Of a DNA stretch of 64,000 nucleotides, positions 12,322 through 48,322 are shown piece after piece (position 1 is the stretch's first letter; every line of letters starts with the position of its first letter). Under the pieces are notes generated by a model, which worked only from the letters and a program-made list of their open reading frames with translations, had not been told where the DNA came from and searched no databases. A program made the translations under genes and the position numbers. Source of the DNA: an uncultured bacterium (GTDB lineage: Bacteria; Patescibacteriota; CPR2; UBA1875; CAIMLA01). The stretch lies in contig CAIMLA010000050.1 in assembly GCA_903842085.1 (NCBI GenBank), positions 5,133 to 69,132 on the forward strand, read 5' to 3'.

Positions 12322-12351
12322 GTTTCTCCTAAACAATAAATATTCTTTATC

Positions 12352-12445
12352 AAAAAATCTTCGGTTTCCCGAAGACAGCTAAAAACGAATTCAGCTCCTA
12401 GGTAGCGCATTAAGGCTTGGGCCTGCTACTGTCTCCGGATCTATT
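12352..12445 (-). promoter_or_regulatory. L10 leader (autogenous rplJ-rplL control) with attenuator hairpin
   Basis: Minus strand reads CCGGAGACAGTAGC...TTAAT..GCTACCTAGG, like the L10-leader core, then the hairpin TCTTCGG-GAAA-CCGAAGA plus a U-tract (12352-12376) ahead of rplJ. Confidence 0.75.
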
Positions 12446-12453
12446 GTTCCTAA

Positions 12454-12482
12454 ATCCTATCAAAAGTCACGGTCTTTGTCAA
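12454..12482 (-). promoter_or_regulatory. sigma70 promoter of rplJ-rplL
   Basis: TTGACA (12477-12482), 17 bp, TAGGAT (12454-12459) on the minus strand. Confidence 0.75.
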
Positions 12483-42319: not shown

Positions 42320-42697
42320 TTAGATGCTAGTCTTTTGAGTGTCCAGGAAGCCCTTCGCGGCCTCTTCTATTGTGGGATAAATTCTAAGGAGTTGACTAAG
42401 GTTTGTGACGCGAATTATGTCTATTATATCCTTTCGTTTAACCACTAACACGATCTGACCATTGTAGGCTCTTAAGTGTTTTAAGGCGTGAATCAGCAGT
42501 CCCAATCCAGAAGAATCAACAAAAGAGACTTCCGTCATGTCGACGATAATCTTTTTATGTTTTTCTGATATTGCTTCATGCAATGGTATTTTGAGTTCAA
42601 CCGCTGTGTAGACATCAAATTCACCAGAAATCCTAAAAATGATAATATCTTCTTCTTGTGCTTTCTCAATGGTGAAATACTTTCCGGGAAAGCTCAT
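42320..42697 (-). CDS. STAS-domain anti-sigma factor antagonist (RsbV/SpoIIAA-like)
   Basis: GEFDVYTA, DMTEVSFVDSSGLG (phosphorylatable Ser); start set to ATG 42697 (GAGG SD; TTGACT-17-TATCCT promoter upstream). Confidence 0.88.
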   Translation of the reverse strand: MSFPGKYFTIEKAQEEDIIIFRISGEFDVYTAVELKIPLHEAISEKHKKIIVDMTEVSFVDSSGLGLLIHALKHLRAYNGQIVLVVKRKDIIDIIRVTNLSQLLRIYPTIEEAAKGFLDTQKTSI

Positions 42698-42985
42698 AAC
42701 TAGCCTCGTTTCTGAGGATTTGCTTTCTAACAAGGTACTAATCGGATAGGATAGCACTCGATATTTATTTAGTCAACATATCGTTTCTTCTGTGTTAACG
42801 CAAATTAGAAAGGTCCCCTTACTCCTGTCAGCCTTAATTAATAATACTGACCCAAAGTAAAAAGATCTTGCTTAGGTGAAAGGCTTTCGAAGAAACAACT
42901 CGAAAAAATTCAGAGTATTTATGTGTTATTATGTTCTTGTAAATAGAGAAGTGCCTGTTTCTCGGTGTAAACTAGGAGGTGTCAC

Positions 42986-43171
42986 GTGTCTATAAGTGCA
43001 TCAAAATGCCCCCTAAAGAATAGCTGCCCTTGTCAGCAAGATAATAATTGCTGCGACAGATGCCCAAACAGTGTGACCGCCTTTGGCTTAATCTATATAA
43101 ACTCTGAAGTAGAGCCATTTTTTAGGACTAGCGATGGTGGTTTTGTCCACGTCAAAAGACACATTCATTGA
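42986..43171 (+). CDS. Small Cys-rich hypothetical protein (61 aa)
   Basis: AGGAGGT SD (42974-42980) 5 nt before GTG; 6 Cys in 19 residues; strong hairpin directly downstream. Confidence 0.6.
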   Translation: MSISASKCPLKNSCPCQQDNNCCDRCPNSVTAFGLIYINSEVEPFFRTSDGGFVHVKRHIH

Positions 43172-43190
43172 ACTTCTCTTTTACACAAAC

Positions 43191-43217
43191 CCCGCTTGTG
43201 CATTTAGCACAAGCGGG
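43191..43217. terminator. Perfect 11-bp hairpin between the convergent small ORF and yggT
   Basis: CCCGCTTGTGC-ATTTA-GCACAAGCGGG. Confidence 0.65.
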
Positions 43218-43287
43218 AACTTCTGATAAATCGGAGTTGAATATTTAGCTTTTATCTTTTCTTGTCTCGGCTGTTTTAAATATGTCG

Positions 43288-43545
43288 CTATATTCTGCTC
43301 ATAATCTCTTGGATTAAAAACAAGGCCAAATAAGCGATGATCGGTGAGAGGTCCATCATTCCGCCCAAAGGCGGTACAACCTTGCGGATTGGTCCTAAAA
43401 TTGGTTCGGTAATACTGTAGATAAATCTTTGAAGTTTTTCAGCTTTCTGCGGAATCCAACTCAATATAACCCTAATAAAGATCAGAAGCATTAACAAGTT
43501 AGTTAATAAATTAACAAAATTTACAATTAGTTCTTTTGTGTTCAT
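43288..43545 (-). CDS. yggT: YggT family membrane protein
   Basis: RVILSWI...TEPILGPIRKVVPPLGGMMDLSPI. Confidence 0.93.
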   Translation of the reverse strand: MNTKELIVNFVNLLTNLLMLLIFIRVILSWIPQKAEKLQRFIYSITEPILGPIRKVVPPLGGMMDLSPIIAYLALFLIQEIMSRI

Positions 43546-43796
43546 CTATTTAAGGCTAATTTTACAACCGAAAGCATCGGCAGAGAGCCTCTCCAACACT
43601 CAGTTTCGGTGCCATCATCTCGAACAACTAGGAGCGTTGGGGTACTGTAAATATTATAGATGTCAGCATCAGCTGCCGCTTCTTTGCCATCAAGGTTGAT
43701 AAGTTCAACGTCGTAATGCTTCTTTATCTCTTCGACAAACTCCAGCGTTTCTCTTTTATTCTCGTCAAATTCCTTTGTGTATACCTTTAATTTCAT
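43542..43796 (-). CDS. Thioredoxin/glutaredoxin-like fold protein lacking CxxC
   Basis: Beta-alpha-beta pattern, 'YNIYSTPTLLVV..DG' cis-Pro motif; YTKEFDEN sits where CxxC would be; coupled to yggT. Confidence 0.65.
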   Translation of the reverse strand: MKLKVYTKEFDENKRETLEFVEEIKKHYDVELINLDGKEAAADADIYNIYSTPTLLVVRDDGTETECWRGSLPMLSVVKLALNR

Positions 43797-43839
43797 GTTT
43801 ATAATATATCAAATTTCCGATTAATTTTAAAGTCATAAA

Positions 43840-44419
43840 TGGGAAAGCCCCAGCTCCATACCAGTCTCGACAGTGTCGAGGAAAGGATACGTTGCTGGGG
43901 CTTATGCCCTCGTTCGGTGTCCCGAGATGTTTATCATCTGCGAGACTGAGTGGGGCTTTATAGCTCCACGAGGGTGGGCCTCTCGGCCCTGGGTGCGGGG
44001 TGTCTCCCAAATTTCACTTTCGTGATCGAAGGAGAGCACCCGCGCGGCAATAGTCCGTTTTTTTGCCCCGGACTAGGGCAGATCTACTTCGGCATTCCGT
44101 TCCTTCCTGCCCTAACTCAGAGAGTAGGGCAATAGATGATGCCGAGATCCGCTCCAGCTCTGGTCACTGGTCACCAAAGACGAAGCTTGCTAGTCATCTT
44201 TCTCCTTTTAAAGAGAAAGATGATTTGAGATGTTAAGCCCCTGAGAGCCTTACCATCTTGAGGTCGCCACGCCTCATTTTTTTTCACCGGTTTAACGCAT
44301 CGCTTTTTTTAAATTGCGATACCGGTACCAGTATACTTCTCTACATTAGAAACCCGAGAAGTGGATGGCCCAAATTTTTCGGCCCAGGCTAAAAATATAT
44401 TGCCTGTTCTAACTCAGTT
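43840..44419 (-). ncRNA. Putative large (~580 nt) highly structured non-coding RNA of unknown family
   Basis: GC-rich island with no credible ORF; a dozen or more adjacent stem-loops, two GNRA tetraloops and G-U pairs that work on the minus strand, a candidate H-type pseudoknot, and its own promoter. Confidence 0.75.
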
Positions 44420-44424
44420 GCAAT

Positions 44425-44453
44425 ATATTAGCATATTAGTTATATATTGTCAA
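44425..44453 (-). promoter_or_regulatory. Strong sigma70 promoter driving the structured RNA
   Basis: TTGACA (44448-44453), 17 bp, TG-C-TAATAT extended -10 (44425-44430); predicted TSS ~44418. Confidence 0.8.
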
Positions 44454-44504
44454 GTCTTTTATCGGAAGGTGAATTTCATAACTTTTAATTTGAGCCAAAC
44501 AGAG

Positions 44505-44741
44505 TCATTTACGTCCTTTGATTATCAAGAGCAAACCAATAAATATTATTAAAAATGGCCAGAACATCTCCCATATTTCTATGCCAAGATAGTTTTGGAT
44601 AAAAAACATTAAGCCAACAAATACTAAGATCAAGCCCCAGAAAATCCTGCCATTCATCATCGACCTCCGTTTAATATTATTAATTACAACTTTTTCTTCA
44701 ACAAATTCTTCTACTATTTCTTCTTTATTTTCCTTAATCAT
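44505..44741 (-). CDS. Small two-TM membrane protein (LiaI/LiaF-TM/DUF5668-like)
   Basis: FWGLILVFVG...FWPFLIIFIGL pattern. Confidence 0.75.
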   Translation of the reverse strand: MIKENKEEIVEEFVEEKVVINNIKRRSMMNGRIFWGLILVFVGLMFFIQNYLGIEIWEMFWPFLIIFIGLLLIIKGRK

Positions 44742-44766
44742 CTTTTCTCATATTGTAATAATCTTT

Positions 44767-45456
44767 TTATATATTATCACGTATAATTACTTCTTTGACA
44801 TATTTTTGCATTATTTCCTTGATTGATGAAAGCTCTTCTTTAGTGAATGATGGCCTTGTTTTTAAGCTCTTATCAAGGGTTATTTCTGGCCGAAATCCTT
44901 GGATAGCGTAACGCTGTGATCCGGCAATCATCTTCCCTATTTCATCGAAATCTGATAGCTCATGATAGCTTGGAAGGACGGTTGTTCGGAATTCATAATC
45001 CAACCCACTTGATTTAATTATTCTTACACTTTCTTGAATAACTTTTTTATTCAAATACTTCGATATGGCCGGATATTCTTCTAAGGGTCCTTTGATGTCC
45101 ATAGCAATATAGTCAATCATCTTTTTATCTAATAACAATTGCAATCTCACTGGATTACTCCCATTGGTATCAAGCTTAACCTTAAATCCCATTTTTTTGA
45201 CTTTTTCTATAAAGAGCTCTAGCCCGTCTTGGATAATAGGCTCGCCTCCGGTAATAACTACCCCGTCGAGCTTGCCAACTCTTTTTGATAAATATTGATA
45301 AACTGTTTGTTCCTTTATTTGCCCTTTTTTTATTTCAATTAAGTCAGGGTTGTGGCAAAAGCCACATTGAAAATTGCAGCCTTGCGTGAAGATCACGGCT
45401 GCAATTTTGCCCGGGTAATCGATTAGTGAGGTTTTGACTAAACCTGATATTTCCAT
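44767..45456 (-). CDS. nrdG: Anaerobic ribonucleotide reductase activating radical SAM enzyme
   Basis: SLIDYPG, GCNFQCGFCHN, TGGEP, KLDTNG, YEFRTT; follows nrdD. Confidence 0.93.
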   Translation of the reverse strand: MEISGLVKTSLIDYPGKIAAVIFTQGCNFQCGFCHNPDLIEIKKGQIKEQTVYQYLSKRVGKLDGVVITGGEPIIQDGLELFIEKVKKMGFKVKLDTNGSNPVRLQLLLDKKMIDYIAMDIKGPLEEYPAISKYLNKKVIQESVRIIKSSGLDYEFRTTVLPSYHELSDFDEIGKMIAGSQRYAIQGFRPEITLDKSLKTRPSFTKEELSSIKEIMQKYVKEVIIRDNI

Positions 45457-45458
45457 CT

Positions 45459-45620
45459 TTAACAGTTACTTGAATCCAGATCAAAGGTAACCCGATCGCC
45501 ATATTCTGCTTTTTTGCCATCATTCCATTGGTTGATTGGCCTAATGTAGCCGACTACTCTTGAATAAACTTCACATTCTGTTCTTCGTCCTTCTAAATTT
45601 TCTCTTTCTTCTAAAGTCAT
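45459..45620 (-). CDS. Stand-alone glycyl-radical domain of class III RNR (53 aa)
   Basis: Missed by the ORF track. Manual translation MTLEERENLEGRRTECEVYSRVVGYIRPINQWNDGKKAEYGDRVTFDLDSSNC*; AGGAGG SD at 45625-45630; contains the RVxGY glycyl-radical motif and WNxGK..E. Confidence 0.9.
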   Translation of the reverse strand: MTLEERENLEGRRTECEVYSRVVGYIRPINQWNDGKKAEYGDRVTFDLDSSNC

Positions 45621-48268: not shown

Positions 48269-48322
48269 ACACAACATATAGTGTATTAAACATATAGTAT
48301 GACGCTATATGTAAGGTGTCAA
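48269..48322 (-). promoter_or_regulatory. nrdR-nrdD promoter overlapped by NrdR boxes
   Basis: ACACAACATATAGTGT (48269-48284) matches the NrdR box acaCwAtATaTwGtgt with one mismatch; weaker copies at 48285-48300 and 48302-48317; TTGACA (48317-48322)-17-TACTAT (48294-48299). Confidence 0.8.

Follow-up and report, generated by a model that had tools for sequence, protein, structure and literature searches.

What does the GC-rich island that precedes a small thioredoxin-like gene in this 64,000-nt stretch of DNA (the window) encode, and if the answer is an RNA, what would that RNA do? A first-pass annotation had proposed a stand-alone structured RNA read from its own promoter on the minus strand. 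Having compared the locus with related genomes, we regard a real structured RNA gene at 44418->~43838 as very probable. The locus is laid out as follows:

44505..44741 (-): small LiaF-like membrane protein, the upstream neighbour, which follows nrdR-nrdD-nrdG
44425..44453 (-): sigma-70-type promoter, with a -35 of TTGACA, 17 nt and an extended -10; predicted start near 44418
43838..44418 (-): large structured non-coding RNA gene of ~580 nt, marked by its fold z and its homologs and without an Rfam match
43803..43811 (-): extended -10 of the downstream thioredoxin-like gene, outside the RNA; leaderless start
43542..43796 (-): downstream ORF of 84 aa, weakly thioredoxin-like (Pfam Thioredoxin, E 0.0077, below cut-off)
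43545-43288 (-): yggT, after the thioredoxin-like ORF (YGGT, E 3e-21)

GC content per 200 nt was 0.475-0.575 across 43800-44300 compared with ~0.3-0.4 in the surroundings, which bears out the GC-rich island described earlier. The promoter, TTGACA-17-TAATAT with an upstream TG at 44453-44425, scored 10/12, the top value among 12 sites in 42700-44800, and in a comparison of the copy from this genome (G000) with those from two relatives (G001 and G004), the -35 was invariant and the -10 was kept in both relatives. Folded from 44418 to ~43838, the minus strand reached a minimum free energy of -246.9 kcal/mol (z -12.16), and none of 100 shuffled sequences was equally stable, a favourable outcome in a control that the annotation had named beforehand; the opposite (plus) strand folded with a z of -7.22. 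Among 94 GC-rich intergenic 300-nt segments scanned in the genome, the lowest folding energy was that of the RNA locus, and the RNA sequence is single-copy in this 966-kb genome, which is 95% complete. The earlier statement that the island has no credible ORF needs some qualification: ORFs of 81, 61 and 63 aa overlap the RNA region, but no ORF longer than three codons is common to all three homologs. Because no canonical intrinsic terminator was found at the RNA locus, we placed the 3′ end (~43838) at the limit of conservation and structure; the ends of the transcript, and likewise its high abundance, are what we infer.

Diverged homologs, 620 nt long in G001 and 483 nt long in G004, occupy the same locus behind the same promoter. 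They fold with z values of -7.3 and -7.4, respectively, local-alignment z among the three copies is 6.4-12.5, and in all three the RNA lies directly upstream of the thioredoxin-like gene in the same orientation. Loci were found via the downstream protein in 32 of 41 genomes, and 30 loci were inspected. A covariance model of the 3′ half (R1) matched in 3/32 class genomes and 3/151 phylum genomes, while BLAST recovered the RNA in 2/61 genomes, including G000, and missed the G001 copy. A pattern search allowing three mismatches gave matches in 4/401 genomes, three of them true and the fourth inside a 357-codon frame; the exact pattern matched 25 times in wider genome contigs, two of these being known copies and the others being without the remaining motifs. 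Seven extra places in five genomes that were picked out by a class-wide pattern were all judged chance. Scanning 740.6 kb of G003 and 160 kb of G017 de novo revealed no homolog (top G003 candidates inspected), a metagenome scan keyed to the neighbour protein returned four loci, all unrelated, and BLAST with the RNA against phages and plasmids gave only a 33-nt chance match. A model of the 5′ half (R2, from G000 and G004) did not recover the G001 copy that had been kept out of it, and the two best additional matches it gave were in coding DNA; these searches therefore do not show that the RNA is absent from other genomes. The wide searches, of the kind that the annotation had called for, brought in no homologs beyond these two.

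Six other members of the family have psp/lia genes and glmS in the slot, and in G009, which belongs to the genus of G004, the liaF-like gene is followed directly by glmS. A NrdG tree grouped G000, G004 and G009 (92/91, unresolved within the group); G001 has no nrdG on its contig. As read from these sequences, the distribution fits a single gain in a small clade, and the RNA family looks accessory and clade-restricted, given search models of limited sensitivity. The idea that the RNA replaced glmS was dropped, since glmS is elsewhere in G000 and G001, and was not found in G004. The annotation had argued from retention in a streamlined genome to an important function. The comparison does not support this: relatives carry other genes in the slot, and because the family is narrow (3/32 class genomes, at limited sensitivity), an important housekeeping function is unsupported. 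Our literature search, which lay outside most subscription journals and supplementary motif tables, found no description of a comparable large structured Patescibacteria RNA.

Read from 5′ to 3′, the RNA is predicted to consist of the following elements:

44335..44406 (-): three 5′ hairpins, which vary between homologs
44327..44333 (-): 5′ strand of pseudoknot 1, whose partner is the loop at 44171-44165; 7, 7 and 8 bp in the three copies
44285..44327 (-): arm closed by an invariant CCGG/CCGG, with a variable tip
44259..44276 (-): hairpin with a conserved UGGCRA loop motif and a 4-bp stem in which one pair is altered on both sides
44151..44186 (-): hairpin whose 7-8 nt loop is the partner in pseudoknot 1, with a conserved UAGC linker before it; folds in three copies
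44084..44095 (-): conserved AUG-CCG-NNN-UAG motif, which doubles as the 3′ strand of the central helix
44051..44080 (-): pseudoknot 2, H-type, with an invariant S1 of 4 bp, an S2 of 6-7 bp and an A-rich loop 3
43905..44050 (-): variable multibranch domain with GNRA-capped hairpins
43845..43903 (-): conserved 3′ stem of 10 bp, then an AA/GR internal loop; one pair changed on both sides
43880-43866 (-): near-perfect palindrome, the tip of the 3′ stem; in all three copies an inverted repeat whose halves are 1-2 nt apart

All 13 helical regions mapped in the first-pass annotation hold pairs with a probability >0.5. Its map overlooked the two pseudoknots, and among the nested stems at 44081-44149 the GATCT stem has a different register in the homologs and its outer end competes with pseudoknot 2. 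In the order of conserved elements in the three copies, variable hairpins lie between the UGGCRA hairpin and the UAGC linker, and the central helix is irregular, with a conserved 3′ strand. In pseudoknot 1, the whole loop 44171-44165 is complementary to 44333-44327 in all three copies, with two pairs changed on both sides, two changed on one side and none broken; the hairpin bearing this loop (44151..44186) shows a 1-nt register shift in G004. Pseudoknot 2 is found at the same place in the three copies, and two of its S2 pairs are changed on both sides. H-type pseudoknots are common somewhere in a shuffled sequence (1-11 of 60), so the weight of pseudoknot 2 rests on its constant place and its compensatory changes. 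The 3′ tip is palindromic in each copy, yet its sequence is different each time, and the peripheral hairpins vary freely among the three copies.

Over 44 helix positions in the three sequences, 29 were invariant, three were changed on one side, seven on both sides and five were broken, four of these five because a single hairpin of G004 is out of register by 1 nt. Pairs form in 127 of 132 cells, compared with 31-69 once the partners are slid, the structure being derived from the same sequences. Motifs in these very sequences served to fix the registers, so the tally is to be read as a count rather than as a test of significance, and with three genomic copies the covariation, though counted, is statistically underpowered. 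Covariation among homologs, for which the annotation had asked, was seen as compensatory changes in each of the two pseudoknots and in the 3′ stem, in three copies only. From the modelled pairings we predict a conserved two-pseudoknot core with free side arms in all three. No end-to-end pairing of the 5′ and 3′ ends appeared in the folds. Separately, the 5′ end of the RNA (window 44417-44403) repeats 13/15 nt of an internal helix strand (44120-44106), in G000 only.

Five runs from two freshwater metatranscriptome studies contain part of 43300-44800. Four of the five were placed on 42500-45499, where all seven contig pieces fell within 43912-44405 and none over the flanking genes; two contigs of one study end at 44403 and 44405, a weak hint of the start. 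Metatranscriptome mapping, as the annotation had suggested, therefore put seven of seven pieces inside the RNA, as contigs of depth 2-3 that carry no strand, level or DNA-run control, and the empty flanking genes are no proof of their silence. One diverged contig has 13 listed substitutions, six at paired and seven at unpaired positions. Four of the paired changes make up two compensatory double changes, both in the multibranch domain (43905..44050), one turns a G-U into an A-U pair and one is a break in an indel-rich part; by reading, two of the seven unpaired changes create pairs. In another contig, three predicted pairs are broken among four listed changes (seven in all), which either speaks against those peripheral pairs or shows errors.

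As to what the RNA does, the reading we favour, at somewhat less than an even chance, is that of a stand-alone, trans-acting, protein-free scaffold that binds copies of itself, by analogy with ROOL, GOLLD and OLE. A stand-alone gene with a near-consensus promoter would give rise to the ~580-nt RNA, which would fold into its two-pseudoknot core and the side arms that vary freely around it, and the chains might then associate with one another via loop-strand pairing of pseudoknot 1 and the palindromic 3′ tip. We infer these two contacts from the modelled pairings, and there are precedents for both types: ROOL has a pairing that was initially classed as tertiary from covariation but is a kissing loop between chains, and palindromic loops are employed by OLE and GOLLD (10.1101/2024.12.08.627333). 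For pseudoknot 1, covariation fits a pairing within one chain as well as one between two. Short loops with complementary ends made up 12/21, against 29/154 in shuffles (Fisher p 4e-4), and 0/6 in tmRNA and RNase P RNA. Palindromes may also arise by template switching in DNA. Against self-association, the computed dimer gain of the 3′ tip, -6 to -9 kcal/mol, is no better than that of other hairpins in G001 and G004, and against the analogy with ROOL and GOLLD, this RNA is without a tRNA or phage context.

The main rival reading, which we consider unlikely, is that the RNA acts as a ribosome decoy or trap, which would offer an SD-like run and the three-codon frame AUG-CCG-NNN-UAG, with pseudoknot 2 beyond them, and would in this way hold or sense ribosomes. 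This is the sole AUG frame common to the three copies (MPK, MPI and MPK, each followed by a stop), and the strand that bears it is conserved despite differences in its pairing partner and register; however, most of the frame is taken up by base pairs in the predicted fold, and a chance AUG-stop frame in conserved motifs of the same total length would be expected about 1 time in 6 (rough estimate). Pairing of the purine-rich upstream run with the anti-SD gave -6.6, -3.5 and -8.4 kcal/mol against a genome median of -4.2, and is thus better than the median in two copies but weak in G001 (-3.5). G000 retains its anti-SD and uses SD sites. Pseudoknot 2 begins 16-17 nt from the A of the AUG, where an initiating ribosome, with its toeprint distance of +16, would have its edge. 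The combination of this reading with the self-associating scaffold, namely a new class of RNA machine in episymbiotic bacteria whose chains multimerise through the loop-strand pairing and the palindromic tips and whose SD-AUG-Pro-X-stop frame, backed by a pseudoknot at the mRNA entrance of the ribosome, captures or stores ribosomes, for example in a cell off its host, is a long shot.

Less likely again than the decoy on its own is a remnant of a ribozyme or selfish-element RNA (intron-, retron- or OMEGA-like) that was inserted in one clade and kept. Its patchy spread, its position in the slot of glmS and psp/lia genes in relatives, and two pseudoknots with invariant core bases would agree with such an origin, but there was no match to Rfam intron, HEARO or ribozyme models, the copies have no flanking direct repeats in common, no RT or nuclease ORF is adjacent, and the RNA is single-copy. 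A search for an IscB partner found the RRXRR domain in 0/32 genomes, and the control also gave none. The H-type motif of pseudoknot 2 also occurs in a 390-nt intergenic RNA of a jumbo phage, but the phage RNA resembles only the motif searched for (alignment z 0.9 or less). It came from a viral pattern search with 58 matches, 45 of them distinct and mostly a repeated plain hairpin or chance, in which only the jumbo-phage match forms the pseudoknot; what two other viral pattern searches had picked out was judged chance on inspection. The phage sequence has the motif plus four more Watson-Crick pairs than the pattern required, with ~1-3 chance matches of the bare pattern expected (estimate). As for the phage RNA itself (L089:882-1275 (+), ~390 nt, contigs of 395 and 236 kb), it folds with a z of -4.05 and lies behind a repeated phage promoter motif. 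By reading, its open frame begins D-N-D-E and stops in the pseudoknot loop; we take this beginning to recall the tmRNA tag, and 1.7 kb from the RNA there is a fragment resembling the 3′ part of a tmRNA (L158:4570-4614).

It is also improbable that the RNA is a cis-acting leader or switch for the thioredoxin-like gene and yggT, in which the purine run before the 3′ stem would have two alternative partners, the 3′ tail and the strand that follows pseudoknot 2. The constant orientation upstream of that gene and the missing terminator would be expected of a leader, and the folds of G001 and G004 show the alternative purine-run pairing. However, the downstream gene has an extended -10 of its own, as the annotation had noted, at 43811-43803: among 29 loci examined, this element lies at -15 of the gene in nine, three RNA-bearing and six RNA-less (11/29 at any distance). 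Moreover, the thioredoxin-like gene is class-wide whereas the RNA is not, and the RNA contigs never cover the gene. Leaderless starts are common in G000, and because the downstream gene has its own leaderless promoter, a stand-alone RNA is likely; the conserved promoter, the covarying helices and the confinement of the RNA contigs support the same claim, which the annotation had made, and the RNA would accordingly be independent of the gene that it precedes.

Control of the RNA promoter by NrdR was considered and dropped, since NrdR boxes lie upstream of nrdR and none lies here. The two tandem NrdR-box-like sites at 48269-48284 and 48302-48317 of the window match the consensus at 15/16 and 12/16 positions; the first is the best such site in the genome, and both are upstream of nrdR-nrdD-nrdG. 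At ~45460-45620 (-) of the window, a small separate ORF between nrdD and nrdG, also present in G020, resembles the C-terminal part of a class III ribonucleotide reductase that has been split, and at 12343-12456 (-) there is an Rfam match to the L10 leader (50.6 bits).

A role as a stand-in for 6S RNA, binding RNA polymerase, is very improbable: G000 has no 6S match, but 6S was found in only 1/32 class genomes (G028:C29:119-274 (-)), so its absence does not track the RNA, and the fold is a string of domains rather than a long rod with a central bubble. Least credible is inert palindrome-rich DNA that folds well by construction, for although near-perfect palindromes are enriched and peripheral arms turn over fast, the long-range and H-type pairings covary, the promoter is conserved, the minus strand is favoured and the RNA contigs are confined to the locus.

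Two relatives carry other promoter-led structured RNAs beside the same thioredoxin-like gene in the opposite orientation, one of 442 nt in G012 (L025:980-1420 (-), z -7.0) and one of 810 nt in G020 (L086:7500-8340 (+), z -11.8). These have no Rfam match, no similarity to each other or to the RNA described here, and no full-length relatives in 32 class genomes. The idea that our RNA is homologous to the reversed G012 and G020 RNAs was dropped, as alignment z did not exceed 1.9, neither R1 nor R2 matched them, and H-type pseudoknots turn up in 1-11 of 60 shuffles; we leave these two RNAs and the jumbo-phage RNA unassigned. An 8-nt loop of the G020 RNA is nearly identical to the pseudoknot-1 loop of G001, with the elements in a different order. 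G020 also has two RNase P RNA genes (G020:C90 and G020:C36) in an assembly with 4% contamination. In G000 itself, a second promoter-led, ORF-poor structured RNA candidate of ~565 nt lies on another contig (C18, L223:180-745), ~5 SD below shuffles and without an Rfam match.

Large complex bacterial RNAs are few, and those studied are ribozymes, ribosome-associated machines or RNA-only cages; the present one lies outside Rfam 15 and in a genome under 1 Mb. Because a minimal core can already be delineated from the three versions that occur in nature (483-620 nt), it is a ready target for cryo-EM and probing. Two unrelated-looking RNAs in the slot and one further candidate in G000 suggest that the lineage holds many such RNAs, while the narrow distribution limits the general importance of this one.

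Comparison with catalogued RNAs agreed with the annotation in placing the RNA outside Rfam. At the locus nothing in Rfam 15 reached gathering level, and with E up to 10 only implausible weak matches fell within the RNA; nine related loci gave nothing at E 0.5. Likewise, the signatures of RNase P RNA, tmRNA, SRP RNA and group I/II introns, reported as absent, gave no Rfam match, and the RNA lies between intact genes. Canonical tmRNA and RNase P RNA are found elsewhere in G000, G001 and G004 (in G000, the RNase P RNA, model RF00010, is on another contig), and the RNA has no sequence similarity to the G000 versions of either. Neither SRP54 nor large SRP RNA was found in G000 (95% complete), and no SRP model matched at the locus. 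ARAGORN detected no tRNA or tmRNA in the 64-kb window, and the copies share no tag frame; a tmRNA-like tag frame was rejected, being present in G001 only. We also dropped the idea that the 3′ tail replaces the anti-SD, because 16S rRNA has an intact one. The likeness to tmRNA, RNase P RNA and SRP RNA is one to large structured housekeeping RNAs, and the geometry of pseudoknot 2 resembles that of tmRNA pk1.

The annotation had likened the RNA to OLE, ROOL and GOLLD and reported no sequence match to them, and model searches agreed: ROOL (RF03087) gave no match at the locus in G000, G001 and G004 with E up to 10 (control genomes also gave none), GOLLD (RF02032) gave none at the locus in the three genomes, and the Rfam models of OLE and raiA gave none at the locus. 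The ole gene is linked to oapA, and no OapA-like gene lies downstream here, where the neighbours are the thioredoxin-like ORF and yggT. OLE RNA and the RNA described here are alike in being ~600 nt long, chromosomal and upstream of a membrane-protein gene, but this RNA is far less conserved in sequence and has no oapA-like neighbour. The raiA motif RNA is about half the size of ours. OLE dimerises through palindromic kissing loops, and GOLLD, large and ornate as well, has a better-conserved 3′ part and a variable 5′ part like our RNA (10.1101/2024.12.08.627333); unlike GOLLD, our RNA is shorter and not near tRNAs. The raiA motif RNA shares the compact two-pseudoknot core with dispensable peripheral stems, but its conserved P1 pairs the 5′ and 3′ ends (PMC12968392), which in our RNA are unpaired. 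ROOL averages 581 nt and is similar in size, in its several multistem junctions and pseudoknots, in its few invariant bases and in being accessory (PMC5737381); our RNA differs in having no tRNA or prophage context (no tRNA in 64 kb, housekeeping neighbours), in showing two pseudoknots rather than three, and in its phylum. With >400 nt, multistem junctions and covariation-supported pseudoknots (in three sequences only), it has the features of a large ornate ncRNA, and judged by its sequence it appears to represent a real, undescribed family of this kind, narrow in range.
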